A DNA stretch of 64,000 nucleotides, from positions 1-64,000 of the IMG/VR virus record IMGVR_UViG_3300019360_000002. One strand, given 5' to 3'. Shown piece after piece: positions 6,583 through 28,399 of the stretch; the first letter of the stretch is position 1, and every line of letters begins with the position of its first letter. This DNA is from a virus. A program made the position numbers and the translations under genes. A model generated the notes under the pieces. It was not told the origin of the DNA. It did no database searches and saw nothing but the letters and a program-made list of their open reading frames with translations.

Positions 6583-8076
6583 TTGAAGCTGCCCTATCGT
6601 GGAGCGCCCCAAACGGTGGACGTGATCCGCGATGCTGCGCTCAAATCGCAGGACATCTACACGACACGCCTCATGGCCGAGGAGATCTGCGGCGACCTTC
6701 GGTCCAAGGACTATCTATCGGAGATTCTTGCCATCGACAACTTCGTCTGGTGTAACACCCGCTACATGCGCGACCCGCGCACGGTGGAGCTGGTGCAGGC
6801 GCCATACCTCATCACCGAGCAGCTCAAGGCCGGTAAGACGCCTCAGATCGACTGCTTACCGCAAGGAACGCTCCTGTTACAAGATGATATGTCGCTCGTC
6901 CCCATCGAGCGTGTGCGCCCTGGCATGCGGATATTCGGCAAGGATAGGTGGTCCGAAGTTGGCGCCGTAGCTTATAAAGGCGTGCTTCCGGTTTCTCATG
7001 TAAAGATGAACAACGGCTCATACTTCCGGGCCACCCAAGACCACATGGTTTACATCGGGTTATGCCCGAAGCACGAACACTTAAATGAAAAGTGTTACGC
7101 GGGAGCAGACACTAAACCGTGCGCGTGTTCTGATCTGTCGTGGGAGAGAGTTCGTGTGGGTGCCCTCAAGCCGCGCATGAGGTTGCTTTCACCAGACCGT
7201 ATACCTTTCGGTCAGGAGGAGATGGACCCTCGCCGTGCTTTGATTGACGGATACTACCTATCTGATGGTTGGTGTCAGGGGGCGTCTCTTAACATTTCCG
7301 GCCAAGACGGGTGCCCAAAGGAGGAGCAGAAGCGCGAGGTTGAGCGCATCTGCGACGAACTCGGCATAGCCACGACTTGGTACAGAAAAAGCATTTCGAT
7401 ACGTGATCTGGAGTGGGCCGGGCGCGCAGCCGCGATGGGTCACAAGGCACCAAACAAGCACGCCCTTTCCATCAATCTTTCCGAAGGCGCTGCGCGTGAA
7501 TTGTTGCGCGGCATCATGGCGGATAGTGGCGCCAACACCCATGGTTACGGTCGTACATTTACTTCCACCTCTAGGCAACTGCACCTCCAAACCCGGGTGC
7601 TGCACAAGATGTTCGGGGTGGTGTGCAGCGAGCAATACATCGTCGACCACGGCGGGCTCGGAGAAAACCCGATCTGGCGACTGGGTGTGCGTCAAACCGA
7701 TAGGAGCGATGGAAAAGCGGCAAAAGCCCTTCGTGTCAAAGAAACTCATCACGAAATAACCGAAGCTCCGGTCTACGACATCACCACCGATGACCACTAC
7801 GTGTATCTACCGTCGGCCGATGTCACCGTTAGCAACTGCGACGACATGGCCGGCTACATCTCGTCGCTTCTGCTCTCGGTGGGTTGCGAGACGCGAGTGG
7901 TCACCGTAGCTTTTCGGCACATGTTCTACGCCGGCAGGCGCCAGTTCTCGCATGTGTTTGCTCAGGGCAAGGAGCCCAAGTCTGGAACCTGGATCACCTG
8001 CGACCCGGTTGCGGGCGTGGACACCGACAAGATGCTTCGTCGCGTTGTGGCTGCCAAGGTTTGGCCCATCGCATAA
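6583..8076 (+). CDS. Transglutaminase-like (papain-fold) cysteine protease, intein-containing; putative maturation protease
   Basis: Removing the intein gives ~169 aa with RYMRDP...ID-CDD...FSHVF...WITCDP, a Cys-His-Asp triad. Confidence 0.8.
   Translation: MKLPYRGAPQTVDVIRDAALKSQDIYTTRLMAEEICGDLRSKDYLSEILAIDNFVWCNTRYMRDPRTVELVQAPYLITEQLKAGKTPQIDCLPQGTLLLQDDMSLVPIERVRPGMRIFGKDRWSEVGAVAYKGVLPVSHVKMNNGSYFRATQDHMVYIGLCPKHEHLNEKCYAGADTKPCACSDLSWERVRVGALKPRMRLLSPDRIPFGQEEMDPRRALIDGYYLSDGWCQGASLNISGQDGCPKEEQKREVERICDELGIATTWYRKSISIRDLEWAGRAAAMGHKAPNKHALSINLSEGAARELLRGIMADSGANTHGYGRTFTSTSRQLHLQTRVLHKMFGVVCSEQYIVDHGGLGENPIWRLGVRQTDRSDGKAAKALRVKETHHEITEAPVYDITTDDHYVYLPSADVTVSNCDDMAGYISSLLLSVGCETRVVTVAFRHMFYAGRRQFSHVFAQGKEPKSGTWITCDPVAGVDTDKMLRRVVAAKVWPIA
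6853..7836 (+). mobile_element. Intein (328 aa) with LAGLIDADG-type endonuclease domain
   Basis: Block A CLPQGT, block B ATQDH, endonuclease motifs LIDGYYLSDG and LLRGIMADSG, block F VYDITT, C-terminal SN|C; lower GC than its flanks. Confidence 0.92.
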
Positions 8077-8086
8077 GGAGAACCCC

Positions 8087-9046
8087 ATGGCTCGTCTTCG
8101 GCCCTCACATCCGTGGAACCCCGGCTACTCGATCCCCAAGAACGTGCTCGACGAGCCGTATGGCCAGGGTGTGATCGTCACCAAGCAGGCCAAGCGTGGC
8201 ACCATCTCGGCGCTCCAGCCCGAGTGGCTCGTCGACGGTGCCGGCGCCCCACCGCCCGCCGCACCGCTCGGCTCGCTCGGGTGTGCCCACGGCAACGGGT
8301 CACTCGGCGGGGCGACGATCAAGGGCAACTCGCTCCGCTCCGGCTCACTCGGCAGCTTGTCGGGCACATCGCTCGGCGCCAAGGGCGCAAACGGCGTAGA
8401 GGTCGGCGGCATGTCCGATCCCATCGCCAATTTCGGTCGCCAGGGTGCCGCGCTCATCATGAGCGAGGTGAAGTACCTGAAGGAGTCGGATCGCGTGGCG
8501 GCGATGCGCCACATCCTCGACTCCATCGACCCGCAACTCTTCGACATGGTGGCCAAGCGCGCCGAGGCGCTCGGCAAAAGCGGCGTCGTTCCGCGCGTCG
8601 CGATGGAGCGGGCACTCGCCGCCTCGCTCGCGGGCCGCTACCTGGAGCAGCTCGTGAAGATGGGCAAGACCGGTGCACCGCCCACCTTCGGCGTTCTCGG
8701 TCTCGGCCTCGGCACCGTCGACCCGGAGGGCCTGGGCGGCTTTTTCGCCGACGTGTGGGGCGGCATCAAAAAGGGCGCTGGCGCGGTCGGCTCAGCTGCC
8801 AAGACCGTCGGCAAGGGCATCGGCAAGCTCGCCTGCAAGGCGGCCGGCAACCCCGGCACATCTATCGCGGCAGGTGCGGCCGGCGGACCAGCGGGCGCGA
8901 CCGGTGCCCAGCTCGCCTCCGAGCTGTGTGGTGGCGGCACCCAGTCCGGTGGCGGCTACGTTCCGCCTCCGGCGGCACCGTTTCCCATCATGCCGGTTCT
9001 CCTCATCGGCGGCGGGCTGCTCGCCGTACTTGCGCTTCGCAAGTAA
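8087..9046 (+). CDS. Gly-rich virion membrane protein with C-terminal TM and basic tail
   Basis: AAGGAG RBS; repeated GSLG; ends PVLLIGGGLLAVLALRK. Confidence 0.7.
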   Translation: MARLRPSHPWNPGYSIPKNVLDEPYGQGVIVTKQAKRGTISALQPEWLVDGAGAPPPAAPLGSLGCAHGNGSLGGATIKGNSLRSGSLGSLSGTSLGAKGANGVEVGGMSDPIANFGRQGAALIMSEVKYLKESDRVAAMRHILDSIDPQLFDMVAKRAEALGKSGVVPRVAMERALAASLAGRYLEQLVKMGKTGAPPTFGVLGLGLGTVDPEGLGGFFADVWGGIKKGAGAVGSAAKTVGKGIGKLACKAAGNPGTSIAAGAAGGPAGATGAQLASELCGGGTQSGGGYVPPPAAPFPIMPVLLIGGGLLAVLALRK

Positions 9047-9056
9047 AGGAATGACC

Positions 9057-9650
9057 ATGGGTTTCATCCGCGAATCGAAGACCGCGCTCGGCTACCACCG
9101 CCAGGGCTCCCCGTACAAACGCGGCGGCCGGTACGGATCGCTGGGTGACGTGTTCTGCTTAGAAGGGGATTGTCAAGTAGGTGAAATGCTCGTCAATCAG
9201 ATGATCACGTTCTTCGCGCTAGTGGGGCCGCGTACGACGTTTTCGGCTGACCCGGTTCAGTTCAAGAAGAATCTTCTTGAGGCCGCGGCTTTGGGAACAG
9301 CCAAGCAGAAGGCATTCCACGCCAAGTTTGGTCCAGCGTACAGCGAAATCGTTGACGAGTATTTCCGTCTAGAAACCGAAACCACGCTTTTGGGGATCAA
9401 GAAAAAAGACAACCCTTTTAGCGTCAACTGTTGCTCGATCAAGGAGCTGGGTCGTAAGGCACAGACCCTCACTGCACAGGCCCACAGCTTCATGGGGTCG
9501 CAGGCTCCGACACCGACCTTGATCCAAGATCCGTTCGATCCTAGCTCCGGGCTATTTGGCAACGCCTTGAGCGGTGGGATGAGCCTCATCAAGCTTGGCC
9601 TGGTTGCCTTCATCGGCATCACCGCCTACAACGCAGTAAAGAAGGGCTAG
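9057..9650 (+). CDS. Tail-anchored membrane protein
   Basis: RYGSLG motif; ends LIKLGLVAFIGITAYNAVKKG. Confidence 0.65.
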   Translation: MGFIRESKTALGYHRQGSPYKRGGRYGSLGDVFCLEGDCQVGEMLVNQMITFFALVGPRTTFSADPVQFKKNLLEAAALGTAKQKAFHAKFGPAYSEIVDEYFRLETETTLLGIKKKDNPFSVNCCSIKELGRKAQTLTAQAHSFMGSQAPTPTLIQDPFDPSSGLFGNALSGGMSLIKLGLVAFIGITAYNAVKKG

Positions 9651-9653
9651 CCC

Positions 9654-10172
9654 ATGAGTCACGCCAACAGCAGATACGGATCACTCGCCCCGGGGTCACT
9701 CGCCCCGGGGTCGCTTGGCGAGACGGTCTCCTACGCCGGCTCGACCGTAGGCATGCTGCGTGCCGCCGGCATCAACGACACCCAGGCGACGATGGCCGCG
9801 TCCGGCATGTTCTGGACGGTCGGGGAGTCGAACGTCAACGCCCCCGTGACGCAGGTGATCGTGCGAGCGGTACAGCGCATGCTGAATCACCTGTCCGGCC
9901 CAGGCGAGCAACTCTTCGTGGACGGCATCCTGAACAGCGACATGCAGAGGGGCCTACTCAAGCACCTCGGCCCCGGGTTCCCGCAGATGACCTGGGCCGG
10001 CGTGTTCGCGTCGCTTCGGAACAAGCTCGCCCAGAAGAAGAGCGACTTCATCCTGAACGAGGAGCCCGACCTCATGCCGATGGGCGACTTCGGTGGCGTG
10101 GGTCTCGGCACCCTGCTCATCGGCGGCGGCATTCTCTACCTTCTCTTCGGAAGAAAGGGCAGCAGACGATGA
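9654..10172 (+). CDS. Tail-anchored membrane protein (possible peptidoglycan-binding-like helical domain)
   Basis: RYGSLAPGSLAPGSLG; VRAVQRMLN...LFVDGI; ends LLIGGGILYLLFGRKGSRR. Confidence 0.65.
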   Translation: MSHANSRYGSLAPGSLAPGSLGETVSYAGSTVGMLRAAGINDTQATMAASGMFWTVGESNVNAPVTQVIVRAVQRMLNHLSGPGEQLFVDGILNSDMQRGLLKHLGPGFPQMTWAGVFASLRNKLAQKKSDFILNEEPDLMPMGDFGGVGLGTLLIGGGILYLLFGRKGSRR

Positions 10173-10801
10173 GCTACATCGCAGGTAAGAACGGTCGCGC
10201 AATGGGCATGGGCTCGGGGGACTGGCAACGCGACATCCGCAAGGCCCACGACACGGTGCACGGGGTGACGCGAAACACCATCTCCGGCTACATGAGCCAG
10301 GCGGGGGTGTTCGACAACGTGAAGAGCTTTTTCACGCCAGCGTCGTCTGACGCGTTGCCCAAGCAGCTTCAGAAGGAGACCAATCGCTATGCCGGTGTCG
10401 CCTTCGCAACACCCATTGGCGAGGACGGTAAGATCGGCTCCGACACTGTTATAGCGGTGCGGGCCGTGGCGTCCTTCCTCATCAAGCAGGGGGCGGTGCA
10501 GTCCGATTCGTTTGTCCAGTCGGGCGCGTCGGCCAATGCGGCCTACATCCTCGCCCACGTGAGCGAGTACATCTCGATCTTCGACAGAGAGGCCAACAAG
10601 CGGGGCCTCACCGGCAAGAGCGCTCCCAAGCAGCGGCCGGAGAAAGTCTCCCTGCCCCTTCCCGGCGAGCCTCCACCCGGCGGCGGCATGCTCGACTCGC
10701 TCATGGCCGGCGGTGTGGGAGGGGTCTCACCCGTAATGCTTCTGGGCGGAGCCGCACTCGTCTACTACCTGGCGACTCGCAAGAAGAGGAAGGGACGTTG
10801 A
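10169..10801 (+). CDS. Tail-anchored membrane protein (MSY start; possible peptidoglycan-binding-like motif)
   Basis: LQKETN...IGEDGKIGSDT; ends MLLGGAALVYYLATRKKRKGR. Confidence 0.65.
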   Translation: MSYIAGKNGRAMGMGSGDWQRDIRKAHDTVHGVTRNTISGYMSQAGVFDNVKSFFTPASSDALPKQLQKETNRYAGVAFATPIGEDGKIGSDTVIAVRAVASFLIKQGAVQSDSFVQSGASANAAYILAHVSEYISIFDREANKRGLTGKSAPKQRPEKVSLPLPGEPPPGGGMLDSLMAGGVGGVSPVMLLGGAALVYYLATRKKRKGR

Positions 10802-10888
10802 TGAGCAAGTATTTCAGCCACGGCGCCTACATCACGACCGCCCTTCGGGCGGTCTGGAGACGCCGATGAGCAAGTATTTCAGCCACGG
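10800..10888. repeat. 24-bp direct repeat of a gene start flanking a hairpin
   Basis: GATGAGCAAGTATTTCAGCCACGG at 10800-10823 and 10865-10888; hairpin GACCGCCC-TTC-GGGCGGTC at 10836-10854. Confidence 0.8.
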
Positions 10889-11084
10889 GATGGCCCCCTA
10901 CGTCTACGACTGGCGTGGGCGAGCCTACTCGGCCAACGAGAACGGCTCACGTGTCAAGTCGGAGCTATCCGGCGTGATGGACGTGGTGAAGAGCCCGCTT
11001 GGCATTGGCGCGCTCGTCGTGGGCGCCATCCTCCTCTACCCGAAGGTGTTCGGCTCGGGACGAGTGCGGGTAACACGGCGGTAA
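10866..11084 (+). CDS. Small tail-anchored membrane protein
   Basis: 72 aa; GIGALVVGAILLY followed by a basic tail. Confidence 0.65.
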   Translation: MSKYFSHGMAPYVYDWRGRAYSANENGSRVKSELSGVMDVVKSPLGIGALVVGAILLYPKVFGSGRVRVTRR

Positions 11085-11087
11085 GAC

Positions 11088-11201
11088 ATGAAGGTCGAGA
11101 ATGATATTTGGTGGACAGAGCCCGGGGGTTTCATCCCAGAGGCGTTTGTCGTTCCTCTGCTCGGCCTGATTGTCGTACTGTGGTGGGGGGGACGCAGGTG
11201 A
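11088..11201 (+). CDS. 37-aa membrane peptide (not in the ORF track)
   Basis: MKVENDIWWTEPGGFIPEAFVVPLLGLIVVLWWGGRR; GTGA-coupled to the next gene. Confidence 0.55.
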   Translation: MKVENDIWWTEPGGFIPEAFVVPLLGLIVVLWWGGRR

Positions 11202-11515
11202 TCTACTCCGTCTACAGGCCCGAGACCGGCGTCTACGACTACTACGAGACGCCGGAGCAGACCGCCAAGAACCCTGACCCTCAGTTCCTCACGGGTCGCG
11301 GCGCCACGGCAGCGCTTGGCCTCTCATCTACCGATGCCGGCTGGCAGCTCCCCGGTAACGCCCGCAAGGTCGGCGAGGGCAAGCAAGCGCGCGGCATGAT
11401 TGCGACCCGCAACGGCGGTAGCCTGGGCGGCTTCGAGGTCCCCGGCGGTGGGTTCGGCGTGGCCGCGATCCTGGGCGGTCTGTGGTGGCTTTTCGGCGGA
11501 AGGAAGCGGCGATGA
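11198..11515 (+). CDS. Tail-anchored membrane protein
   Basis: GTG start VIYSVY; GSLGG; ends AAILGGLWWLFGGRKRR. Confidence 0.65.
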   Translation: MIYSVYRPETGVYDYYETPEQTAKNPDPQFLTGRGATAALGLSSTDAGWQLPGNARKVGEGKQARGMIATRNGGSLGGFEVPGGGFGVAAILGGLWWLFGGRKRR

Positions 11516-12042
11516 CGCACCGTCGTGTGAACCCCGGCGAGCCCCCGCCCGAGCTGGCGGAGGCGATCGACGGCTACGAGGACTTCCACGCTTGGGAGCC
11601 GCGCGAGATCGGCGAGATGAACCTCGTCATTCCGACCACGGTGTGTGTGGTGGGAGAGATGGTCCAGACCCTCTACCGATCGGACAAGTGGGAGAACAAG
11701 TCGAGCGATTACTTCCACGACCACGACCCAGGTGTGATGATCGGTCGAACCGACGCGGCGGCTCGGGTCGCAAACCCTGGCTGCCAGACCGGCGTTCGCC
11801 TGCCTCACTGGATCACGGACGCCAAGGCGGTGTACATGCTTGGTCGATGTCTGGGCTATTCGTACACGCAACCGGACGGCGAGCCCATCGAGGCCAAGGT
11901 CGGGCGTCCGTTGCCAGAGCTTTATGCTGTGCCCAATCGCAAGGCACTGCTCGTCATCGACACGGCGGGGGACACGGCCGAATGCTTGGCCGTGATCTGG
12001 GGCGGCAACCTCATCGTGAAAGACGTGGGTATCGTAGGATGA
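11512..12042 (+). CDS. Putative virion protein with N-terminal RRVNP motif
   Basis: ATGA-coupled start; 176 aa, beta-rich. Confidence 0.65.
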   Translation: MTHRRVNPGEPPPELAEAIDGYEDFHAWEPREIGEMNLVIPTTVCVVGEMVQTLYRSDKWENKSSDYFHDHDPGVMIGRTDAAARVANPGCQTGVRLPHWITDAKAVYMLGRCLGYSYTQPDGEPIEAKVGRPLPELYAVPNRKALLVIDTAGDTAECLAVIWGGNLIVKDVGIVG

Positions 12043-12329
12043 ACGAGGAAAACCGAGACGGGCTTTTACTCGCCATTCACTCGGAGGTGCGCGAGGTGCG
12101 CAAAGAGGTGGGCAACGTCCGCGAGGCTCAGGCCGCCATCTCCACCCGGCAGGAAGATCACACTGGGCGCATTCACCTCATCGAGACCAAGCAAGCCGAG
12201 CTGGGCAAGACGATCGGTGAGCACGGAGCGGCCAGGCACAAGCTATCCGGCGTATGGGTAGGCGCGGCGGCCGTCCTCGCGCTCGTCGCCTCCATGGCCG
12301 GTCTTCTCAAGATACTTCTGGGCAAGTAA
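12039..12329 (+). CDS. Coiled-coil protein with C-terminal TM (holin/XhlA-like architecture)
   Basis: Heptad-rich N-terminus; GVWVGAAAVLALVASMAGLLKILL. Confidence 0.55.
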   Translation: MNEENRDGLLLAIHSEVREVRKEVGNVREAQAAISTRQEDHTGRIHLIETKQAELGKTIGEHGAARHKLSGVWVGAAAVLALVASMAGLLKILLGK

Positions 12330-12476: not shown

Positions 12477-14045
12477 ATGCCCATCTGGTACGTGAACCCG
12501 AGTCGACCGCGAAAGCGCAGAAACGCTGCGCATCGCGTCACCCGCTCCTGGGCCGCCTCGCAGACCGGCCGGGCCACGAGCCCGAGCGGCATGCGGGCCA
12601 GACGTACCCAGGTTCGGCCCGTGGCGCGCACCATGCCGGGTTCGGCGTGGACACCTTCTCGGGCCAAGGCCAATGCTCGCAGGCGGAGAAACCCGGGCGG
12701 CCCTCTCCGTCTCTTCGGTGCCGCCGCCAAGGCACACGCCAAGAAGCAGCAGAAGCTTCGTCGGGCCAAGGCCCGCCGTTCGTTCCGAGATCACAAGGTG
12801 TCCGTACGTCGCCGTGGAAAAGTGACGACGGTGACCGTCAGAAACCCCAAAAAGAGAGGTTCAAGCATGAAGCGTCGTCGTCGCGCCCATCGCAATCCGT
12901 CTCCGAGCCGCCGTCGCCGTCGGGCGCGGCGCGCTCACGCGAACCCCATCCGTCGCCACCGTCAGCGTCGGAACCCGATGTACAAGGGGCACGCCAAGCA
13001 CAGGAAGGCGCAGCTCGCTCACCACCGCAAGTCGCCCAAGCGAGTTGCGGCTGGCAAGAAGGCGGCTCGCACGCGCAAGCGTCACGCCGCCGCCAAGAGC
13101 GGCACGCGTCGTCGCAAGTACCGTCGTGCCCCCACCCGGGGACGCGGCGTGAAGGCGCTGCGTCGTGCACGCAAGGCCATCCGCTACCAGCGCAAGCGCC
13201 GGGGCGGCAAGCGCGCCCGCGCCTACATGCGCCGTTACCGAATGAAGTCGAACCCGTCGCATCGCCGTCGTCGCAACCCGCGTCGCCGTCGTCACTACGG
13301 CGTGCGCTCGCTGCGTCGGGCGCGTCGCACCATCCGCCACCAGAAGCGGCGCGGTCGCGGCGCGGCCAAGTCGTTCATGCGGCACTACCGCATGCGCTCG
13401 AACCCGGGCGGGATCGTCGGCACGGTGGTGAGCGTCGTCAAGGCGGCGGTGCCCATCGCGCTGTCGTTCTACGGCGCGCGGTTCATCTCGGGCAAGATCT
13501 CCGAGAGGGTCCCGATGGTGAGCCGTCTTGGTCGCCACCGTGGTCCGGTGCTGGGCACCCTCCTCATCGTCGCCCAGGGCTTCGCGGCCAAGAAGGTCGC
13601 GTTCCTCGGTCGCCACAACTCCAGCATCATGGTCGGCCTCGGCGTGAACCTCGTCGACCAGCTCATCAAGGCGTACGCGCCGGCTAAGGTGCAGGCGTAC
13701 CTCGGTGACTCGTCCGACGTGTACTCGAACGCCATGATGGGCGAGTACATCGAGACCGGCGAGTACATCGAGACCGGTCTGGAGCAGGAGATGGGCGACT
13801 ACATCGAGACCGGCGCCCTGGAGCAGGAACTCGGCGACATGAGCCAGTCCGCCGAGGAAGAGCTGGGTCTGGAGCAGGAGATGGGCGGGTCGGCCGTGAT
13901 GAACGCGCCGGTTCCCACCCAGCGCATGCTCGCGCCCGTGCCGCAGCGCTCGTTCGTCGAGCAGGTGCCCCGCTGGACGCCCGCGTCGGACCGCAAGGAT
14001 CGCCTGTACCAGGGCATCTTCGCGGGCGGCTGGGGGGTTCGGTAA
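12477..14045 (+). CDS. Protamine-like DNA-condensing core protein with membrane domain and acidic repeats
   Basis: ~310 aa R/K/H-rich region punctuated by xNP motifs, then hydrophobic helices, then GEYIET/LEQEMG acidic repeats. Confidence 0.7.
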   Translation: MPIWYVNPSRPRKRRNAAHRVTRSWAASQTGRATSPSGMRARRTQVRPVARTMPGSAWTPSRAKANARRRRNPGGPLRLFGAAAKAHAKKQQKLRRAKARRSFRDHKVSVRRRGKVTTVTVRNPKKRGSSMKRRRRAHRNPSPSRRRRRARRAHANPIRRHRQRRNPMYKGHAKHRKAQLAHHRKSPKRVAAGKKAARTRKRHAAAKSGTRRRKYRRAPTRGRGVKALRRARKAIRYQRKRRGGKRARAYMRRYRMKSNPSHRRRRNPRRRRHYGVRSLRRARRTIRHQKRRGRGAAKSFMRHYRMRSNPGGIVGTVVSVVKAAVPIALSFYGARFISGKISERVPMVSRLGRHRGPVLGTLLIVAQGFAAKKVAFLGRHNSSIMVGLGVNLVDQLIKAYAPAKVQAYLGDSSDVYSNAMMGEYIETGEYIETGLEQEMGDYIETGALEQELGDMSQSAEEELGLEQEMGGSAVMNAPVPTQRMLAPVPQRSFVEQVPRWTPASDRKDRLYQGIFAGGWGVR

Positions 14046-14243: not shown

Positions 14244-15672
14244 ATGCCACGTCTTCATGGAGTCAAGGAGCGTCTGCACCAGCCGTTCTGGGACACGCTC
14301 GTCCGCACCACGGGTCCCCTGGCCACGCCGATCCAGCAGACCTCACGTCTGTTCGGCAACGCCAACGTAAACGGCCTGTAAGCCGTCCTGCGTCGCCGGG
14401 CAGTAATGCCTGGTTGGTACTGGGTGAATAAAACTGAAGTGATAGAGTGAGGGTAATGCTCAAGGACACTGACATCGCGTGGTTGGCCGGACTCATCGAC
14501 GGAGAGGGGTGTTTGTACCTCGCCGTTCGGTCCGACAACACGGCGACCCGGGTTTCGCGCAGGACTGGCGAGACCGTTCAGTACGGGCCGTACTTCCAGG
14601 TGCGCTGCGACTTCAAGCTAGCCATGGCCGATCGAGAAACGATCGTTACTGCGGCCGGCATGATCGCGGAGATCCTGGGAACCACCGATGGCGTGTTGTT
14701 CCGAGAGGAGCGCCGTAAGGTTGTTCGCGCTCGTCCGCTCTGGCGCGTCGAACTCAGCTCGAAGGGGGCAATCAACACGCTCCTGAGAACCATTCGACCG
14801 TTCGTTCGGACGAAGGCGATCGAGGCAGACCTTTGCCTTGACTATCTATCGCATCTTCTGATCACACCGTGGCACAAGGCCACCCTGCGTGATCTGGAGC
14901 TGGCGAGATTGGCAACCGAACTCCGTCACGGCAGCGGTGAAGCCCGTGCTCAGGCAATCGTCATCCTGAGCCAGGTAACGCCGAGCCAAGCCGCAGAGGG
15001 CACCGACAGCACGTCGGGCTCTGCGGAAGGTCTAGAGACTAGCCGGGTGAGCGCCAGCAATAACCCCGGCCACGAGCGCCCAGCACCCCACCTTGCCGCT
15101 GTCGGCGGCGAGAGGGTGAAGACATAGTCCGAACCCGGGCAAAAGCCCGAGCGCCGTCTAAACAGCGGCGATTCCGACGGTTGACTGTCGGAAACATTTG
15201 GGGAAATCTATCGTTGACGAACCTTCAGGTCGCCGGCCAGTTGGCCAGCGATCAGACGTACGTCATCCTGGCGCTGCGCGCCTGGCTGTACTTCGACGGC
15301 ACCAACCGCCGCTCGAACTACCTCCAGGTCGCGTCGCAGCTCTACTTCACCCTGACCATCGGCAACAAGCCGCTGTTCCAGGCGCCCTGCTGGTACTACC
15401 CGTCGGGCGGCGGCGTCTGGGGCTTCGATGCCCAGGCGTTCGCGGCCAACACGTCGGGCTCGATCTTCAACCTGGGTGACCCCACCCAGGAGTCGATCCT
15501 GAAGCTGGCCCGTCCGATCATGGTGCCGGTGCGCCAGAACTTCGCCGTCGAGGCGCAGTTCTTCACCGTCGGCGCCACCAACGTGCTCACCAACCTGAAC
15601 GCTGGCGCCGCCGACGATCAGAAGGTGATCATGTTCGTCATCGATGGATTGCAGACCAGAGACGTTCAGTAA
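14244..15672 (+). CDS. Putative major capsid protein 1 (single jelly-roll-like, 198 aa); exons 14244-14368 and 15201-15672
   Basis: AAGGAAGG RBS; spliced product RLFGNANV|GNLSLTNLQVAGQL matches the uninterrupted paralog RLFGNTNIGNLVICNLQVAGQL at ~34323; strong codon bias; beta-rich. The capsid role is inferred. Confidence 0.65.
14369..15200 (+). mobile_element. Group I self-splicing intron
   Basis: 5' exon ends in U and intron ends in G; Q-like GGTAACGCCGAGCCAAG (~14973), R GGAAGGTCTAGAGACTA (15025-15041), S GAAGACATAGTCC (15118-15130); P7 GACTA/TAGTC; candidate P3 GTACTGGGTG/CGCCCAGCAC; splicing restores the frame. Confidence 0.9.
14456..15127 (+). CDS. Intron-encoded single-motif LAGLIDADG homing endonuclease
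   Basis: DIAWLAGLIDGEGCL motif; LRTIRPFVRTK. Confidence 0.88.
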   Translation: MLKDTDIAWLAGLIDGEGCLYLAVRSDNTATRVSRRTGETVQYGPYFQVRCDFKLAMADRETIVTAAGMIAEILGTTDGVLFREERRKVVRARPLWRVELSSKGAINTLLRTIRPFVRTKAIEADLCLDYLSHLLITPWHKATLRDLELARLATELRHGSGEARAQAIVILSQVTPSQAAEGTDSTSGSAEGLETSRVSASNNPGHERPAPHLAAVGGERVKT

Positions 15673-15687
15673 CACAGAGTCGGGATT

Positions 15688-15727
15688 CCATGGTAGCCTT
15701 CTCTGTAGAAAGAGAGGGCTACCATGG
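15688..15727 (+). promoter_or_regulatory. Hairpin sequestering the RBS and ATG of the HNH gene
   Basis: CCATGGTAGCCTTCTCT pairs with AGAGAGGGCTACCATGG (17 bp, one G-U). Confidence 0.75.
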
Positions 15728-16350
15728 GGCCTGGCGATACGTTAGGACGGCTGACGATACGAAGGTTGTTTCACAAAAGGTCGGGCACCGGCAAATCGGT
15801 GCGAATGATCGAGGCGAAATGTGACTGCGGGCGAATCAAAAAGGCGCGTGAGAGTGACGTACGGAGCGGCAATGTCCGTTCTTGCGGCTGCTTTCGTCGT
15901 GATGTTATCGCTGCCCGCAGTACGACCCACGGTCAGTCGCGGGTCGGTAAACGAACAGAGCTGTACAAGCTCTGGAACGCGATGCACGACCGATGCCGGC
16001 GCAGCCCGTTCTACGTCGGTCGACAAGTACGTGTGTGTGATGAGTGGCTCGACTTCAACGCGTTTGAAGCGTACGTGGTCGAGAATCTCGGACCCAAACC
16101 AAAAGGCTACTCGCTCGATCGGATCGACAACGACAGGGACTACGAGCCGGGAAATATCAGGTACGGGTCTCCTACCGATCAAGCTAGGAATAGACGCAGC
16201 AACACGCTGCTCACGGTACGCGGTGAAACACTCTGTGTCGCAGAGTGGGCCGAGCGCATGGGTTATCACTCAGCTACCATCCTTCAGCGCAAACGACTCG
16301 GCTGGAGTGACGAAGACGCGGTGTTAAAACCGCTGCGTAAGAAGAAGTAG
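15724..16350 (+). CDS. Free-standing HNH homing endonuclease
   Basis: GRLTI...CDCG...SCGC...THG; W..M..RC; SLDRIDNDRDYEPGNIRY...QARNRR. Confidence 0.85.
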   Translation: MGPGDTLGRLTIRRLFHKRSGTGKSVRMIEAKCDCGRIKKARESDVRSGNVRSCGCFRRDVIAARSTTHGQSRVGKRTELYKLWNAMHDRCRRSPFYVGRQVRVCDEWLDFNAFEAYVVENLGPKPKGYSLDRIDNDRDYEPGNIRYGSPTDQARNRRSNTLLTVRGETLCVAEWAERMGYHSATILQRKRLGWSDEDAVLKPLRKKK

Positions 16351-16465: not shown

Positions 16466-17095
16466 ATGCAGATCGACAACGCCACTGCGGCGCTCATTCG
16501 TCAGCTCCTCACGCCGTTCAAGAACGAGATCATCCGAACCAAGCAAGAGCTGGAGAAGGTCCGGCTCATGGCGGCGTCGCGTCCGCGTACGGTCACCGAG
16601 GAGATCGACGCGATCCCCGGCCGGCGCATCTACTTCACCTTGTCGCAGGTGCAGCAGTTCACCATCGCGCAGAACCACCAGCGCGGCCTGGCGATGAGCT
16701 TCTTAGTCTCCCAGGACGGCCCGTTCATCCAGACCCACTATCCGCTGGCGATGTGGCGTCCGAGCGCGCCCGCCGCCACCACGAACCTGGGTCGCTGGCG
16801 GCCGGTCTCGTCGTGGCCGCTGCCCGATCAGGTGGTCGACACCGACATCATCGATCTCAGCTACGAGGTCTCCGACGGCGGTTCTGTGCGCAACTTCCAG
16901 AACCTCCCCGTGTCGGCTGGCCTCCTGTCGCGCCCGGACAACATGATCCCCTTGCCGGTGCCGACGCTCTACACGCCGAACACGCCAATCCAGTTCATCC
17001 CGACCTACGAGAACATCCTGTTCGATTCGGCGATCCCGCCGACCGCAGGCATCTTGGTCGTGGGTCTGCCCGGCTACCGGATCGTCAACCTGTAA
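16466..17095 (+). CDS. Putative major capsid protein 2 (single jelly-roll-like with N-terminal helix)
   Basis: GGGAG RBS; 209 aa, beta-rich after a helical N-terminus; ends LVVGLPGYRIV; adjacent to MCP1. Confidence 0.55.
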   Translation: MQIDNATAALIRQLLTPFKNEIIRTKQELEKVRLMAASRPRTVTEEIDAIPGRRIYFTLSQVQQFTIAQNHQRGLAMSFLVSQDGPFIQTHYPLAMWRPSAPAATTNLGRWRPVSSWPLPDQVVDTDIIDLSYEVSDGGSVRNFQNLPVSAGLLSRPDNMIPLPVPTLYTPNTPIQFIPTYENILFDSAIPPTAGILVVGLPGYRIVNL

Positions 17096-17105: not shown

Positions 17106-17642
17106 ATGAGTTACATCTCAACAGGCGCAGTGGGCTCACCGTCGGCGAACCGCCAGGCGATCATCGCCGCGCGCTCGGCCATCGGCGACTTCTTGAGCCT
17201 GCTCAAAGCGCAGCCGAAGACACTCAAGAACTCTCCGACGGTGATGAAGATCTTGCCGTCGAGCGACGAGACGTTCACCGGCCCGGGTGCCGACCCGGCC
17301 GGTCGCCTCGCACTCAGTCGCGCCATTGTACCGATGGTGTGGCCCGGCGCAAATGTCATCGCGTGGCCAGCGGAGCAGCTCGCTCAGTTCGAGGCGGCGT
17401 GGGGCGTGCTCACGGCGTACCTGGCAGCGGGCGGCAGCAAGAACACCAGCAAGCTCCAGTTCGCTAGAAACCTCACGGGCATTCAGGTCGCCATCAACCA
17501 GACCTCCGAGCTTCTGATGATCGTCGACGAGTTCATGGCGCGAGACGGAATTCCGCGCGGATCTAGCATCAAGCTCTACCTCGGCCTGGCCGCACTCCTG
17601 GGTCTGGCCGTATTTGCTGGAAAGAAAGGGGTTTTCAAATGA
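17106..17642 (+). CDS. Tail-anchored virion membrane protein (MSY family)
   Basis: MSYISTGAVG...LYLGLAALLGLAVFAGKKG. Confidence 0.7.
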   Translation: MSYISTGAVGSPSANRQAIIAARSAIGDFLSLLKAQPKTLKNSPTVMKILPSSDETFTGPGADPAGRLALSRAIVPMVWPGANVIAWPAEQLAQFEAAWGVLTAYLAAGGSKNTSKLQFARNLTGIQVAINQTSELLMIVDEFMARDGIPRGSSIKLYLGLAALLGLAVFAGKKGVFK

Positions 17643-18073
17643 GCTACGTCCTTCGCGGTGTCGGTGGAGCCGGCTCAGGTACCACTCCCAAGCCGAACAA
17701 GTATGGGGGCCGCGCACCCGGCAGACCTGTGCCTGGACCGGCCACGCTGCCCACGTGCGGTCGTCCTGGTCAGGCGCCGTGTCCGGGTGGCAGCTCGTCG
17801 GGCGGAGGTGGTGGGCAGCCGGTCGGCGACGGCTCGTACATGCTCGACCCTGGTGCGCGGCTCTACGCCACAGGCGACGCGACCGCAGGCGGCGTCATCG
17901 GCACGCTCATCGACGTGATCACGAGCCGGCCCGGCGCGCTCCTCATCTCGGGCACGCTCGCGTACCTGCTCTACAAGAGCCCGGCGGCGCGCAAGGAGCT
18001 GTGGGGCACGGCCAAGGGCCAGTACCACATGACCAAGGCACGTCTCGGCCCCAAGCACGGCCCGGCGTTCTAA
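17639..18073 (+). CDS. Virion membrane protein (MSY family)
   Basis: MSYVLRGVGG...GALLISGTLAYLLYK. Confidence 0.65.
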   Translation: MSYVLRGVGGAGSGTTPKPNKYGGRAPGRPVPGPATLPTCGRPGQAPCPGGSSSGGGGGQPVGDGSYMLDPGARLYATGDATAGGVIGTLIDVITSRPGALLISGTLAYLLYKSPAARKELWGTAKGQYHMTKARLGPKHGPAF

Positions 18074-18077
18074 CAAC

Positions 18078-18166
18078 TTCGACCCCTCTGGTCGTCCGTG
18101 GCGAGGACGACCAGAGACAACCGGAGAGCTGGCCGAAATTAGGCACGGACGACCAGAGGGGTTGAA
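18078..18166. repeat. Intergenic inverted repeat with a competing internal arm
   Basis: 18078-18100 pairs with 18144-18166 (23 bp, one G-U); GGACGACCAGAG at 18105-18116 is an alternative partner. Confidence 0.8.
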
Positions 18167-18190
18167 AACAAGAAGGGATTGCGAAGCGCA

Positions 18191-18520
18191 ATGAGCTACC
18201 TGGCGGACTACAGACGCGGCTACCGAGCACAGGGCGGCGTCCTGGACACCGCCGGACAGGCTCTCCAAGCCGCCGGCAAGGTGATCGAGGACCCGGCGTT
18301 GCCCGAGGTCACGAGGTTGGTCCTGCGTCTGAACGCCACCACCAAGGGCGGCGCCAAGGTGCCGGCCAAGGGTATCGGTCTCTCGTCCGCCGTCACACCG
18401 CTCAAGGGCTTCCTCTTCTACAGGGAGAACCCCTGGGTCGTACCCGTGGGTATTCTTGCCGTCCTCGGTGCCCCGTTCTACATGGGCTACCTGTTCGGCA
18501 AAAAAAGGAAACGCGCATGA
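18191..18520 (+). CDS. Tail-anchored virion membrane protein (MSY family)
   Basis: MSYLADY...VGILAVLGAPFYMGYLFGKKRKRA. Confidence 0.7.
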   Translation: MSYLADYRRGYRAQGGVLDTAGQALQAAGKVIEDPALPEVTRLVLRLNATTKGGAKVPAKGIGLSSAVTPLKGFLFYRENPWVVPVGILAVLGAPFYMGYLFGKKRKRA

Positions 18521-19161
18521 GCTACTTGGGTCTCGGACACTATAGAACGCGCGGTATGGCGGCGCTCGGCGCAACGGAGCCGCAGTTCTACGTGTACGTA
18601 CAGAAGTGGCGGGGCTACGGCAAGTCGAGCAGCTCTTCTGGTCCATCAGCAAGCAGCGCCAAGAAAGACGGACCGCCCATCAAGAAGGGACCGTACGGCA
18701 AGGTTGAGGCCGAGCAGAAAAAGAACGAGGCCAACATCGGAATCGGTGGATGGAAGCAGTACAAGGGGCCGAGGGACGGGGCTTATCACTGGACCACGGC
18801 AATGGTGGTCCCGATTGTAACAGCGACCGTGGGCGCTCCGCAGCCCACAGGCCCTTCTTCGGTTATCGGCATGCTGGTGCGCCAGCCGCAACCGATGGTG
18901 AACGGCGGGTCCGGTCCGCAAACCTCCCAACAGAGTGGTGGTGGCGGCGGCGGCGGCGGTGACGGCCCCCAGGGACCTCCGGCGGCCTCTCAGGAGGTCG
19001 AGACCGAGAACGTGGCCGTGACCGAGCAGGGACCTGTTCTGGCCACGGTCACCGGCAAGCCGCTCGCTCCGGGACAGGAAGGCATGCCGACCACGACCCT
19101 ACTCGTGATCGGCGGTGGGCTGCTCGCTGCCTACCTCCTCTTTGGAAGGAAGCGCGCATGA
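18517..19161 (+). CDS. Tail-anchored virion membrane protein (MSY family)
   Basis: MSYLGLG...poly-G...TLLVIGGGLLAAYLLFGRKRA. Confidence 0.7.
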   Translation: MSYLGLGHYRTRGMAALGATEPQFYVYVQKWRGYGKSSSSSGPSASSAKKDGPPIKKGPYGKVEAEQKKNEANIGIGGWKQYKGPRDGAYHWTTAMVVPIVTATVGAPQPTGPSSVIGMLVRQPQPMVNGGSGPQTSQQSGGGGGGGGDGPQGPPAASQEVETENVAVTEQGPVLATVTGKPLAPGQEGMPTTTLLVIGGGLLAAYLLFGRKRA

Positions 19162-19703
19162 GCTACTACAGGACCAGAGCAGTGGCCAGCCTGGATGCGG
19201 CGATCATCACGCCGCCCAAGCCCAAGCCGCTCACCGTGACACCCAGGCCGCTGTCGCCTCGCCCGCTGACGCCGGGGCCAATTGTCCGCCCGTCGCCGCT
19301 GCGTACGTTCACGAGCCCGGTGCGGACCACGATGGTTCCGCCACCGCTCGTCGTGGTGGGCATTGCGCCCAGGGCGCCCGTGCGCTTCTCGCCGGGCCAG
19401 TTTCAAATCATCGCGCCGCCGCCTTGGTCGAAGGCCCTTGTGCCGCCTCCGACGCAGCTCAATCCTGTGCCTCCGGTCGCTATGCCTTCATACGGAGGCG
19501 GCGGAGGCGGCGGCGGAGGCGGCGGGGGTGGTGGGGGCGGCGAGGAGCTGGAGACCGAGAGTGTGACCGTGACCAAAGCTGGTCCGCTTCCAACCGCCGC
19601 TCTCGTCCAGAAGCCGGGCATGTCGAACAAGACCCTGCTCATGATCGGCGGCGGTCTGGTGGCCGCCTACCTCCTGTTCGGCAAGAAGAAGAGGAGCAAG
19701 TAG
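19158..19703 (+). CDS. Pro-rich tail-anchored membrane protein (MSY family); C-terminus paralogous to the preceding gene
   Basis: Poly-G, ETESVTVT, TLLMIGGGLVAAYLLFGKKKRSK. Confidence 0.7.
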   Translation: MSYYRTRAVASLDAAIITPPKPKPLTVTPRPLSPRPLTPGPIVRPSPLRTFTSPVRTTMVPPPLVVVGIAPRAPVRFSPGQFQIIAPPPWSKALVPPPTQLNPVPPVAMPSYGGGGGGGGGGGGGGGGEELETESVTVTKAGPLPTAALVQKPGMSNKTLLMIGGGLVAAYLLFGKKKRSK

Positions 19704-19952
19704 ATGAGCTACGTTCTAAGAGGCGTAGGCGCCGGCTTCGAGAAGGAAGGCGGAGGCGGCGCTCAGTCTGCGGTGCGCGGCGAGGGCCAATCGATCTCCG
19801 CTGGCCTTCAAGCGCTTGCCACCAAGATGTTCGGCAACCAGCCCGGCCCGAGTGGTGGCGGTGGCGGTATGCTCAAGAGCCCGATCGTGCTCGGGGGCGG
19901 TGCCTTGGCCCTCTTCCTCTACCTGCGGTCGCGCAAGAAGCGAGGCAGGTAA
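19704..19952 (+). CDS. Small tail-anchored membrane protein (MSY family)
   Basis: MSYVLRGVG (identical to the 17639 start)...IVLGGGALALFLYLRSRKKRGR. Confidence 0.7.
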   Translation: MSYVLRGVGAGFEKEGGGGAQSAVRGEGQSISAGLQALATKMFGNQPGPSGGGGGMLKSPIVLGGGALALFLYLRSRKKRGR

Positions 19953-20312
19953 ATGGGCTACATCAAGGATGGACGCCTGAGCGGTCTCGGCGCTGTCACC
20001 TTAGTGCGCGACCACAGGGCCGGCGCCAAGGCCACCGAGTACGTGCAGCGAGAAGGCGAGACGCGTGCCCAGGCGACGGCCAGGGCCTACGCCGATCCCG
20101 CTGCGGCGGCGGCCGAGGCTGCGCAATACAAGCCCGGCTATAAGCCCCCAGCGGCGCCCAAGGGCGGCGAGAGCGGTAGCAGCGAAGGCGGCGGTGCACC
20201 GCTTGCGCCCCAGACCTCGTTCTTCGGCATCCCGGGCACCTACCTCCTTCTCGGAGGCGCGGGTCTGCTCGCACTTCTACTTTTGCGTCGCAAGAAGTCG
20301 GCGGCGCAGTAA
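19953..20312 (+). CDS. Tail-anchored membrane protein (MGY start)
   Basis: MGYIKDGRLSGLGA...YLLLGGAGLLALLLLRRKK. Confidence 0.7.
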   Translation: MGYIKDGRLSGLGAVTLVRDHRAGAKATEYVQREGETRAQATARAYADPAAAAAEAAQYKPGYKPPAAPKGGESGSSEGGGAPLAPQTSFFGIPGTYLLLGGAGLLALLLLRRKKSAAQ

Positions 20313-20337: not shown

Positions 20338-20799
20338 ATGCCCAAGTCGCGAGCGTTCGATCCCGAGAAGGAAGAGCTGAATCTCATCGCCGGAGATGGC
20401 CTGGTACGGACACAAGGGTCGATGGAGAAAGGCATCGCGTCCACGACCCGTCTCACCCAGAACGCTTTCGCTCACCCGATGATCCGCTACTCGGGCCGGT
20501 ACGGCGAGTTCGTGCTGGAGGGCGACCTCTACCAGATGCCGGTTTCGGCTGGCAAGTCCGAGCTGATGCTGCACATCATCTGCCCGGTGTGCTCGACGCC
20601 GGAGAAGCCGCACGCGCTACGCATCGTGTCGTCGAGGAAGAAGATGGAGTACGACAACACGCGCGGCATCTCGGTCGAGACCTTCGGTTGTACCTGGGAG
20701 CTGCCCGAGGCTGGAAACACGCCCGGTGCCTTGAAGTTCGGCATGGGCCTGTGCAAATGGCGAGTCGCAATCGAGAACAATCGCGCTCACGACGCATAA
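20338..20799 (+). CDS. Hypothetical protein with possible Zn-binding Cys
   Basis: GGAGG RBS; CPVC...C...C. Confidence 0.65.
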   Translation: MPKSRAFDPEKEELNLIAGDGLVRTQGSMEKGIASTTRLTQNAFAHPMIRYSGRYGEFVLEGDLYQMPVSAGKSELMLHIICPVCSTPEKPHALRIVSSRKKMEYDNTRGISVETFGCTWELPEAGNTPGALKFGMGLCKWRVAIENNRAHDA

Positions 20800-23686: not shown

Positions 23687-23689
23687 CTC

Positions 23690-23914: not shown

Positions 23915-23937
23915 TAGGCTTGCGCTGAGGAGAAATC

Positions 23938-24231: not shown

Positions 24232-24518
24232 ATGTCGATGTCGATTACGACACCCCGGAAAAACAGCCGGATGTGACCAAGTGCGTGCTCGTCATCAGTG
24301 GCGTCGACCCCCAGGCGCTCACCGTATCCGGCGTATGCTTGCAGCAAGACGGGAGTGGCGTTACCCGGGGTTCGCCGATCCCGTTTATCAATCTGCCCGT
24401 AGGGATGGTTGGGCTCACAGCGCTCGCTGATGACACGGTGGCGGCCCTTCAGACCGAGATAAACCCGTCCACCGGCAAGCCGTACTTGCCGAAAGGCAAG
24501 ATCGTCGTCACGCCGTAG
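24228..24518 (+). CDS. Hypothetical protein
   Basis: ATGA-coupled start, 96 aa. Confidence 0.55.
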   Translation: MNVDVDYDTPEKQPDVTKCVLVISGVDPQALTVSGVCLQQDGSGVTRGSPIPFINLPVGMVGLTALADDTVAALQTEINPSTGKPYLPKGKIVVTP

Positions 24519-27858: not shown

Positions 27859-27872
27859 AATAGGAGATTGCG

Positions 27873-28163
27873 ATGCGCAATAACAGCTCGCCTGAAGAAC
27901 ACGCGCGCCGCGCCACCGAGGCAGAACGCAAGCTGGCAATCGAGGCCAGCTACTTCGACTCCTCGCGCATGGCGTACGCCGGCCTCACCCACTACGAGCT
28001 GTTTTGTCTGGAGCTGGGCGTGCTCGACGAGTGTTTGCGTTCAACAGGCAGCGTTACCGCCGTTGACGAAGCTCGCCTCGCCAGGTGGAACAAGGTCCGC
28101 GAAGTGATGCACATGAAGCTGAGACAAGCGCTCGGAAACAACGTCATGCCGGGACAGCGCTGA
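27873..28163 (+). CDS. Hypothetical protein
   Basis: AGGAG RBS, 96 aa. Confidence 0.55.
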   Translation: MRNNSSPEEHARRATEAERKLAIEASYFDSSRMAYAGLTHYELFCLELGVLDECLRSTGSVTAVDEARLARWNKVREVMHMKLRQALGNNVMPGQR

Positions 28164-28399
28164 TGCCCCGCCCGATCATCAGCTACGCGCCCCCGTCCCA
28201 CCACGGCGTCACCACCCTCATGGCGGTAGGCAAGGACGACGCACCCGAAGGAGACGCCATCTACTTCGACGCGGGCCGCGCCGTCAAGTACGCCGTCATC
28301 GGCGGCGCCGTGGGTGCGGTACGCGGCGGCCGGCGCACGACGAGCTACGCCCTCGTGGCCGCCGGTCTATCCCTCCTCGCCAACGCCTTCGGCAAATAA
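28163..28399 (+). CDS. Small membrane protein
   Basis: TGATG-coupled start; two hydrophobic segments. Confidence 0.55.
   Translation: MPRPIISYAPPSHHGVTTLMAVGKDDAPEGDAIYFDAGRAVKYAVIGGAVGAVRGGRRTTSYALVAAGLSLLANAFGK

Follow-up and report, generated by a model that had tools for sequence, protein, structure and literature searches.

The first 64,000 bases of the IMG/VR virus record IMGVR_UViG_3300019360_000002, the stretch analysed here and called the window below, contain between ~4.1 and 28.4 kb what is best read as the morphogenesis module of a complete bacterial virus of 83.4 kb, with a shell of jelly-roll proteins over a membrane and a condensed DNA core. We give this reading a probability of roughly 0.6. 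It draws on the gene content of the module, the folds of two capsid candidates, here named major capsid proteins (MCPs) 1 and 2, their conservation across relatives and the absence of hallmark genes.

The window comprises bases 1-64000 of a single contig of 83,535 bases, the first 123 bases of which are an exact copy of its last 123. Because of this end repeat, and because IMG/VR, which classes the entry as viral, notes direct terminal repeats for it and gives a CheckV completeness of 100, the genome is considered complete at ~83.4 kb, and the sequence beyond the window (64001-83535) could therefore be searched too. G+C content is ~59-66% along the whole length. Genes were mapped by third-position G+C and open reading frame (ORF) length, with inspection of the translations. 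The contigs of four relatives (80.1-88.7 kb, G+C 62-72%, three with end overlaps) were compared whole and are referred to below as the complete relatives.

MCP1 is a split gene on the plus strand. Exon 1 (14244..14368), with the Shine-Dalgarno sequence AAGGAAGG 5 nt upstream, holds codons 1-41 and two bases of codon 42 and aligns to residues 1-42 of uninterrupted homologues of 191 amino acids (aa). The ORF from 14244 reads ...LFGNANV and then meets a stop codon; the frame resumes with GNLSL... near 15201, where exon 2 (15201..15672) begins, and the spliced product of 198 aa is predicted to be a jelly roll. Across this junction 35 uninterrupted homologues, mostly of 191 aa (187-198), read LFGNANVGNLxLTNLQ, the closest of them (P0123) being 92% identical; a junction shifted by one base gives the identical protein. 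The 832-nt intervening sequence (14369..15200), missing from the homologues, carries a LAGLIDADG-type ORF (14447-15127) with the motif LAGLIDGEG, which PHROGs assigns to an HNH endonuclease family (E 1.1e-13). In group I introns a U precedes the insert and a G terminates it. The same bases are present here, with U at the 5′ exon end and G at the end of the insert, which is probably a group I intron; the bases at the splice sites and the type of ORF are what this assignment is built on, since support from Rfam is negligible, the Intron_gpI match at 15117-15149 (14.5 bits, E 0.76) being below the gathering score. Among 120 listed MCP1 relatives, nine are of 145-173 aa and could be exon-2-only calls from genes that are likewise interrupted, or products cut by contig ends. 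There is also a displaced paralogue of MCP1, a 248-aa ORF at 33954-34700, residues ~93-230 of which align with MCP1 (40% identity) behind a fused, unrelated N-terminal part; it matches the MCP1 genes of the relatives at 30-42%.

MCP2 (16466..17095, plus strand) is an uninterrupted ORF of 209 aa, in which a helix at the N-terminus (residues 5-38) precedes a jelly roll of eight strands. The initial annotation had described two adjacent β-rich proteins of ~200 aa, starting at 14244 and 16466, and had taken both to be spliced. The two are indeed neighbours, though a free-standing HNH homing endonuclease gene (15724..16350, plus strand; phrog_374, E 9.2e-45), missing from all four complete relatives, stands between them; splicing holds for MCP1, where the uninterrupted homologues confirm the split, and not for MCP2. 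In one relative (G004) the position of the HNH gene is occupied by a 451-aa gene with a spike-type N-terminus (L022:196-1551, minus strand). A scan for promoters and terminators gave a result indistinguishable from shuffled sequence; the terminator scan picked up a 13-bp palindrome, TTGCG-N3-CGCAA, at 16364-16376 and 18178-18192, the former copy lying directly upstream of MCP2.

Both capsid candidates were modelled, as had been proposed with the initial annotation, and both give jelly rolls. The AlphaFold2 model of MCP2 (50-row alignment; pLDDT 88.0, pTM 0.74) has a long N-terminal helix and an eight-strand sandwich. For MCP1 the input was P0123 with 50 relatives, a shallow alignment of 80% column identity, and the resulting model scored 7.0 with SPMV, 6.7 with SPV1, 5.9 with HCIV-1 and 5.3 with both HHIV-2 and VP17. 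The longest structural alignments were those with SPV1 (137 residues) and HCIV-1 (126 residues), shell proteins of membrane-containing icosahedral viruses, and the best structural neighbour is SPV1 (Portogloboviridae). Set against the double-jelly-roll capsid pattern of the prokaryotic Bamfordvirae (Tectiviridae, Corticoviridae, Autolykiviridae and others), MCP1 and MCP2 are single domains (198 and 209 aa). Of 82 MCP2 cluster representatives, most are of 187-252 aa, with 19 fragments of 47-179 aa and seven longer proteins, none spanning both capsid proteins. Folding covered MCP1 and MCP2, and another ORF of the genome could still encode a double jelly roll. MCP1 and MCP2 thus model as jelly rolls; any homology to known capsid proteins, with which they show no sequence relationship, would be putative. 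Searches of PDB sequences with profiles of MCP2, MCP1, the protease and the 547-aa protein, and with the C-half of the core protein, all described below, gave nothing below E 0.005, the matches at that level being coiled coils.

Both proteins belong to large families. In a collection of 5.8 billion proteins, MCP2 has 840 relatives at E≤0.001 among 1,434 candidates, and the best 120 listed are all unnamed or "hypothetical"; MCP1 has 638 relatives. An exhaustive profile search with MCP2 gave 82 clusters at 50% identity, 54 of them with E≤1e-10, while tblastn of MCP2 against 50,697 phage records gave no match. When 97 ORFs of the genome were compared with the four complete relatives by tblastn, 16 queries matched in all four. 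These were the 547-aa protein, the protease exteins, ORFs 11108-11515 and 11512-12042, the core protein, MCP1 (both exons and the paralogue), MCP2, ORF 20338-20799, the N-terminal module of the spikes (three queries), ORF 43898-44776 and, outside the window, a 139-aa protein and a DnaJ-like protein. By far the most conserved module genes are MCP1 (67-75% identity) and MCP2 (49-57%), against ~30% for the others. Capsid-like behaviour of MCP1 and MCP2 is suggested because they are the most conserved, both have strong Shine-Dalgarno sites, their families are large and homing elements lie in or beside MCP1.

The initial annotation had reported no HK97 capsid, portal, terminase or tail genes, and had named such genes in the adjacent sequence as what would speak against it; none was found anywhere in the complete genome. 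Scans with PHROGs and with Pfam, each covering 20 module ORFs, detected none of these families. Clear matches were confined to the two homing-endonuclease ORFs (14447-15127 and 15724-16350), and the weak ones, all under cut-off, were LAGLIDADG_3 and Transglut_core (6583-8076), F5_F8_type_C (17.7 bits, in a spike) and, in MCP1, DUF7592 (15.6 bits, cut-off 27). DUF7592, sub-threshold in 20 of 50 members of the MCP1 family (best E 1.1e-5, over a stretch of 27 residues), was dropped as uninformative. Six-frame Pfam searches, independent of gene calling, were made over the whole 83,535-base record with a limit of E≤1. There were no matches to Terminase_6N, TerL_ATPase or Phage_portal, nor to Phage_capsid (PF05065), a sequence profile that a very divergent HK97 fold could escape. 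Twelve candidate genes of at least 400 aa were picked from the ORF lists of the whole genome, encoding a coiled-coil protein, an intein-bearing protease, a basic protein, three spikes, a primase-helicase, a nuclease, a helicase, PolA, a PcfJ-like and a Cas12-like protein; none is free as a terminase or portal candidate, and there is no tape-measure-like ORF in the genome. The relatives agree, as their five viral contigs hold none of the 21 Terminase_6N and nine Phage_capsid matches of their bins, all of which are on other contigs. By sequence profile, the three hallmarks of the tailed phages (Caudoviricetes), namely HK97 capsid, portal and terminase, appear to be lacking.

A packaging ATPase was not found either, with no match to FtsK_SpoIIIE or Pox_A32 in the six-frame searches. 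Among real genes, the classical Walker A motif is confined to the primase-helicase (51677-54508), the helicase (56452-58659) and the thymidylate kinase, none of which is common to the four complete relatives. In the virion modules of all four relatives the coding strand is free of Walker A ORFs, one relative (G004) is without any in 80.6 kb, and no P-loop gene is conserved across the four.

The candidate for a core protein (12477..14045, plus strand) is 522 aa long, with a basic N-terminal half, a membrane domain at ~306-400 (transmembrane segment 313-331) and an acidic tail; its isoelectric point is 12.0. The protamine-like character given to it in the initial annotation is apparent in residues 1-305, which contain 89 Arg, 29 Lys and a single acidic residue (39% Arg+Lys, net charge +117) along with nine xxNP motifs. 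The C-terminal part has acidic GEYIET / LEQEMG repeats and a conserved end motif, G-[IV]-F-x-G-G. Among the complete relatives it is this C-terminal half that is kept, always behind a long basic N-terminus, and no Pfam, PHROG or PDB-sequence match was obtained. By inference only, ~1,400 copies of the protein would fully neutralise the genome, and a core of 70-90 nm would hold the DNA at packing fractions of 0.25-0.5. A distant paralogue of the membrane domain (43898..44776, minus strand), 30 kb from the virion block, has a short basic N-terminus with RKNP, a hydrophobic domain, an acidic tail and a C-terminal GVF motif; BLASTP aligns it with the C-half of the core protein over 56 residues (E 1e-5). 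Ahead of the membrane domain, the core protein and this short paralogue each have xxNP motifs, a position kept in the relatives, and these motifs are candidate processing sites for the protease.

Candidates for membrane proteins form two blocks on the plus strand. Proteins counted as tail-anchored if their one transmembrane segment lay at the C-terminus, ahead of a short basic tail, and a hydropathy scan of the 97 ORFs identified 14, of which 11 are inside 8087-20312. Another three or four are borderline by eye (11108-11515, 19158-19703, 28163-28399 and 17639-18073), and the initial count of about 15 was a fair one. The first block (8087..12329) comprises ORFs 8087-9046, 9051-9650, 9654-10172, 10169-10801, 10866-11084, 11108-11515 and 12039-12329, together with a soluble conserved protein of 176 aa (11512-12042); ORF 8087-9046 is kept in three of the four complete relatives. 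The second block (17106..20312) comprises ORFs 17106-17642, 17639-18073, 18191-18520 (kept in three of four relatives), 18517-19161, 19158-19703, 19704-19952 and 19953-20312. Five of these pass the strict rule, and 17639-18073 has an internal hydrophobic segment. Six ORFs of the second block start with MSY and one with MGY, the MSY start being found in seven of the small membrane-protein candidates of the module.

Upstream of the region initially annotated is a gene for a conserved 547-aa protein (4140..5783, plus strand) with an N-terminal globular part, a long central coiled coil and a conserved C-terminal domain. Homologues of ~30% identity are present in the records of five of five relatives and on four of four contigs fetched. 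It belongs to no Pfam or PHROG family of known function and, in the PDB sequences, its profile gives only coiled coils at E≥0.005. A role as portal was rejected for this coiled-coil-rich protein with only coiled-coil matches, and it is a candidate for a scaffold or size-determining protein.

Another gene (6583..8076, plus strand) encodes the candidate Cys protease of the initial annotation, of transglutaminase fold, with ~169 aa of exteins and a 328-aa intein (residues 91-418, nt 6853-7836) that has a LAGLIDADG-like motif. The intein is missing in all four complete relatives, whose proteins of 176-210 aa match residues 1-98 and 418-497. It sits directly before the putative catalytic Cys (ID|C...SN|CDD), and the intein +1 residue would therefore be the nucleophile of the enzyme. 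In the relatives C98, H136 and D153 (numbering of a relative) are invariant in four of four. The ORF matches Transglut_core at 17.6 bits and LAGLIDADG_3 at 19.4 bits, both below cut-offs, and in one of two relatives scanned Transglut_core reaches E 9.6e-4. The enzyme may cleave structural precursors, or may equally well have a cross-linking or cell-wall-degrading role. The insert in MCP1 and the intein in this gene mark the capsid and protease genes as conserved, essential targets of homing elements.

Three candidates for spike or receptor-binding proteins follow on the plus strand at 20834-23281 (815 aa), 24543-26456 (637 aa) and 26491-27858 (455 aa). Their alignment supports the earlier view that they are paralogues, as they have 31-32% identity overall, with invariant columns concentrated in residues 1-196. 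The common N-terminal module of ~190 aa consists of two β-sandwiches of ~95 aa and the C-termini are unrelated. In the Atlas model of the module, the halves resemble viral hypothetical proteins of ~98 aa (template modelling (TM) score 0.81-0.85 by target), with discoidin-like neighbours. A further candidate is encoded outside the block. The 139-aa protein (genome 68910-69329, L004:4910-5329, minus strand) has a cupin-like Atlas model. An Atlas lead, at 0.88 just short of the mark of 0.9, points to a cluster with PRD1_P5_spike_N in 32% of its members, and the model and this lead together make the protein a candidate penton or vertex protein.

From these genes the following particle may be proposed. 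MCP1 and MCP2, two unrelated small jelly-roll proteins, would polymerise into a shell on a lipid membrane holding about a dozen tail-anchored proteins, with the 139-aa cupin-like protein at the vertices and the three paralogous spikes, alike in their N-terminal anchor and different in their distal domains, attached there. In the core, the +117 N-terminal half of the 522-aa protein would bind and condense the replicated genome, its hydrophobic middle would lie in the membrane, tying the condensate to a virus-modified membrane patch, and the acidic C-terminal part would point towards the shell. Scaffolding, or the setting of shell size, may fall to the 547-aa coiled-coil protein, and the Cys enzyme may cleave structural precursors. 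Since a packaging NTPase is neither present nor conserved, condensation and enclosure of the genome probably take place as the particle assembles, a route also proposed for SPV1, and the DNA is not pumped into a preformed head. We infer in this way the geometry of the shell, the coupling of assembly to condensation and the proteolysis, and the icosahedral, tailless shape and the internal membrane are read from the gene content.

Several observations weigh against such a particle. The MCP1 model is poor (pLDDT 60.9) and was made on the homologue P0123, not on the spliced protein of the window. At E≤0.001 Foldseek retrieved nothing from the PDB, where the weak rows were jelly-roll proteins, and the 25 BFVD matches within that limit (best 2.4e-5) include none that is close (TM≤0.41 by model length). 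The profiles of MCP1 and MCP2 match no solved capsid protein among the PDB sequences, and the two have no sequence relationship to each other (hhalign probability 0.1), on which ground the idea that they are recent duplicates was dropped. The protease is assigned on sub-threshold scores (Transglut_core at 17.6-19.8 bits, the cut-off being 23), and PDB sequences gave no match for it. An internal membrane or a nucleoprotein core does not follow with certainty from tail-anchored proteins and a basic protein. Sequence profiles and motifs are what the absence of an ATPase was judged by, and a motor that is very divergent or supplied by the host could have escaped them. Particle and bacterial host are predicted from the gene content.

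A virus that is pleomorphic, enveloped or otherwise built, with an envelope formed by the many membrane proteins and with jelly-roll proteins that do not tile a shell and serve at the membrane, in spikes or as matrix, is unlikely, and it has points in its favour. Jelly rolls are common outside capsids, and scores similar to those of the capsid matches were obtained with nucleoplasmin, GOLD, PHM, tail-fibre and cement proteins; the genes for membrane proteins are unusually many and no packaging motor is present. However, the longest alignments are with the shell proteins of membrane-containing icosahedral viruses, SPV1 and HCIV-1 (137 and 126 residues), the neighbouring position, high conservation and ~200-aa size of MCP1 and MCP2 are the pattern of known paired capsid genes, and fixed vertices would accord with the anchor common to the three spike paralogues. 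Quite improbable is a true virus of the type with two single-jelly-roll MCPs (Helvetiavirae/Singelaviria: Sphaerolipoviridae, Simuloviridae, Matsushitaviridae) with an undetected FtsK/HerA ATPase. The two small jelly-roll genes side by side are found here as in that group, as are the many small membrane proteins of these families, but the FtsK/HerA packaging ATPase is not: FtsK_SpoIIIE and Pox_A32 have no six-frame match, neither the present module nor the coding strand in the modules of the four relatives has a Walker A ORF, and the lineage has no conserved P-loop gene. MCP1 and MCP2 are also not detectably paralogous, and the genome is ~3-5 times larger than the 16-19 kb or ~30 kb given for those viruses in the available parts of the source literature. 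The kinship with sphaerolipoviruses and P23-77 suggested initially therefore fails, since the packaging ATPase, a defining feature, was not found in FtsK/HerA or A32-type form.

That the element could be a tailed phage, its structural genes diverged beyond profile detection and its jelly rolls serving as decoration, cement or fibre, is very improbable. The replication genes are phage-like, and small hypothetical proteins that carry the label Uroviricota in the Atlas are similar to the N-terminal repeats of the spikes and to the 139-aa protein; yet the large terminase subunit, which is easily detected, has no six-frame match here and none on the five contigs of the relatives, the twelve genes of at least 400 aa leave none free for terminase or portal, a tape-measure-like ORF is missing and the core of the lineage has no P-loop gene. 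The most improbable of these alternatives is a large plasmid-like element whose "virion" genes have another role in envelope or secretion. The genome does have KorB/ParB-like, PcfJ-like and tyrosine-recombinase genes, and all eight relatives in genome collections are on stand-alone contigs, none visibly integrated. Against this stand the IMG/VR virus record with terminal repeats, the narrow size range (~69-89 kb) and end overlaps of the relatives, the lack of conjugation genes among the ORFs scanned, and the homing endonucleases, intein, membrane-anchored M23 peptidase, spike paralogues and jelly-roll pairs, which are a viral pattern.

If the jelly-roll virus with membrane and condensed core is accepted, its closest analogue would be SPV1 (Sulfolobus polyhedral virus 1), a 20-kb virus of a hyperthermophilic archaeal host (Saccharolobus) with no polymerase, with CRISPR elements and with a three-layer plan, in which a shell of small single jelly rolls surrounds a membrane rich in small proteins and, innermost, a nucleoprotein core (PMC8459092). 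Like FLiP, SPV1 is without a packaging ATPase according to the accessible part of a second source (PMC8812541). SPV1 (hexameric VP4, pentameric VP10; PDB 6OJ0) and the present virus would have in common the three-layer plan, to be read here off the gene set, the circular double-stranded DNA (dsDNA), the want of a packaging ATPase, as far as that part of the source goes, and the presence of CRISPR elements, here a Cas12-like gene. In contrast to SPV1, bacterial signals (Shine-Dalgarno sites, M23 peptidase) are found here, the genome of 83 kb is four times larger and has its own PolA and a candidate primase-helicase, and none of the 6OJ0 chains is similar to it in sequence. The DNA binder is also a 522-aa membrane-anchored Arg-rich protein that is not known to resemble VP1. 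With its bacterial host signals, four-fold genome, own replisome and lack of sequence similarity the virus is not a portoglobovirus; it would be a bacterial, much larger and sequence-unrelated variant of the SPV1 architecture.

Other known systems resemble it in part. P23-77 (VP16/VP17), HCIV-1, HHIV-2 and SH1 likewise have two neighbouring ~200-aa capsid-type jelly-roll genes, a membrane-rich module and vertex spikes. Families with two single-jelly-roll MCPs encode an FtsK/HerA packaging ATPase, as stated in the accessible part of PMC8812541, in contrast to the genome described here, and the portions of the literature examined describe for them no protamine-like core protein such as is found here. 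The prokaryotic double-jelly-roll viruses have genomes under 20 kbp, again in the accessible part of that source (PMC8812541). Tectiviridae (PRD1) share with the present virus the build of an internal-membrane bacterial virus with many small membrane proteins and vertex proteins with a common N-domain, and the 139-aa protein is linked by its sub-threshold Atlas lead to the N-domain of the PRD1 P5/P31 type. PRD1 has one double-jelly-roll MCP, a packaging ATPase, a linear genome of 15 kb and a protein-primed polymerase, whereas single-jelly-roll MCPs of ~200 aa and a genome of 83 kb are found here. The combination of an Arg-rich core protein with a candidate Cys protease in the virion module recalls protein VII and adenain of the Adenoviridae, a functional analogy at most. 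Adenain belongs to a protease family other than the transglutaminase fold, and the enzyme here weakly matches Transglut_core; adenoviruses also differ in having a double-jelly-roll hexon and a packaging ATPase.

Relatives of the virus were found in several collections. Three are in IMG/VR on contigs of 55-83 kb, and among species-representative genomes there are eight, seven of them on contigs of ~68-89 kb. The bins of these are labelled with unrelated phyla and they are therefore probably mis-binned virus genomes. One such bin (G001, "Candidatus Peribacteria", 3 Mb) has 17 Terminase_6N and eight Phage_capsid matches on different contigs; it resembles a bin of phage contigs and not a cell genome, and the host labels of the relatives' bins are therefore unreliable. 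Full-text literature searches found no description of such viruses, in line with the undescribed lineage suspected initially, and most likely the lineage is widespread, uncultured and distinct from the tailed phages, with no description in print found. It may tentatively be proposed, at a little short of even odds, that it is a globally distributed bacterial-virus lineage of high rank, possibly at the level of a realm, with dsDNA genomes of 70-90 kb, no packaging motor and a membrane-anchored protamine-like condenser, the DNA being enclosed by a membrane and a shell of two unrelated single-jelly-roll proteins.

Among the membrane-containing jelly-roll viruses known from bacteria and archaea, genome sizes run from roughly 10 to 30 kb, and a lineage of 70-90 kb would, if true, enlarge this range several-fold and provide a bacterial, four-fold larger counterpart to the archaeal SPV1. 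A proposal, as set out in the accessible part of PMC8812541, holds ATPase-less jelly-roll viruses to be ancestral; the lineage would be a test case for it and would bear on origins before the acquisition of the packaging ATPase. It would also expose a phage group that cannot be classified by marker surveys of terminase and HK97 capsid. Specialists would not expect a bacterial jelly-roll virus of 83 kb without an ATPase, and the abundance of the lineage is sufficient for it to be located and purified.

The initial annotation had joined the virion module to a replication toolkit. The toolkit is present: Pfam cut-offs are exceeded by PolA, ThyX, Tmk, Dcd and a tyrosine recombinase, the primase-helicase is assigned by a DUF5906 match and its Walker A motif, and the replication and nucleotide genes in the window at 29000-64000 and beyond also include a PD-(D/E)XK nuclease, a helicase and a NUDIX gene. 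It does not belong to the lineage, however, as PolA, primase-helicase, helicase, nuclease, ThyX, Tmk, Dcd, NUDIX and the recombinase have no tblastn match in any of the four complete relatives; these genes are therefore interchangeable cargo outside the lineage core. On this comparison the lineage appears to swap whole replication modules around a fixed virion core.

The remaining genes of the module are small. A 153-aa Cys-containing protein (20338..20799, plus strand; CPxC ... C ... C) has no Pfam or PHROG family, and four small ORFs (23300-24518) lie among the spike genes. Two further small ORFs on the plus strand (27873-28163 and 28163-28399, the second with a C-terminal hydrophobic end) are not conserved in the relatives. 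No tRNA genes were found, and an Rfam scan of the window gave no family at gathering score. A search of sequencing runs with window positions 12400-17200 gave no RNA run and three DNA runs, each with 0.05-0.08 of the sampled words. Outside the block, a 196-aa DnaJ-like protein (genome 70033-70623, L004:6033-6623, minus strand) has a sub-threshold DnaJ match at its C-terminus. Near its gene and that of the 139-aa protein is an M23 peptidase with a C-terminal transmembrane segment (L004:3295-3891), likely a lysis or entry enzyme. The Cas12-like gene encodes a 531-aa protein (genome 71657-73252, L004:7657-9252, minus strand) with a Cas12f1-like TNB domain at 26.5 bits against a cut-off of 26.3.

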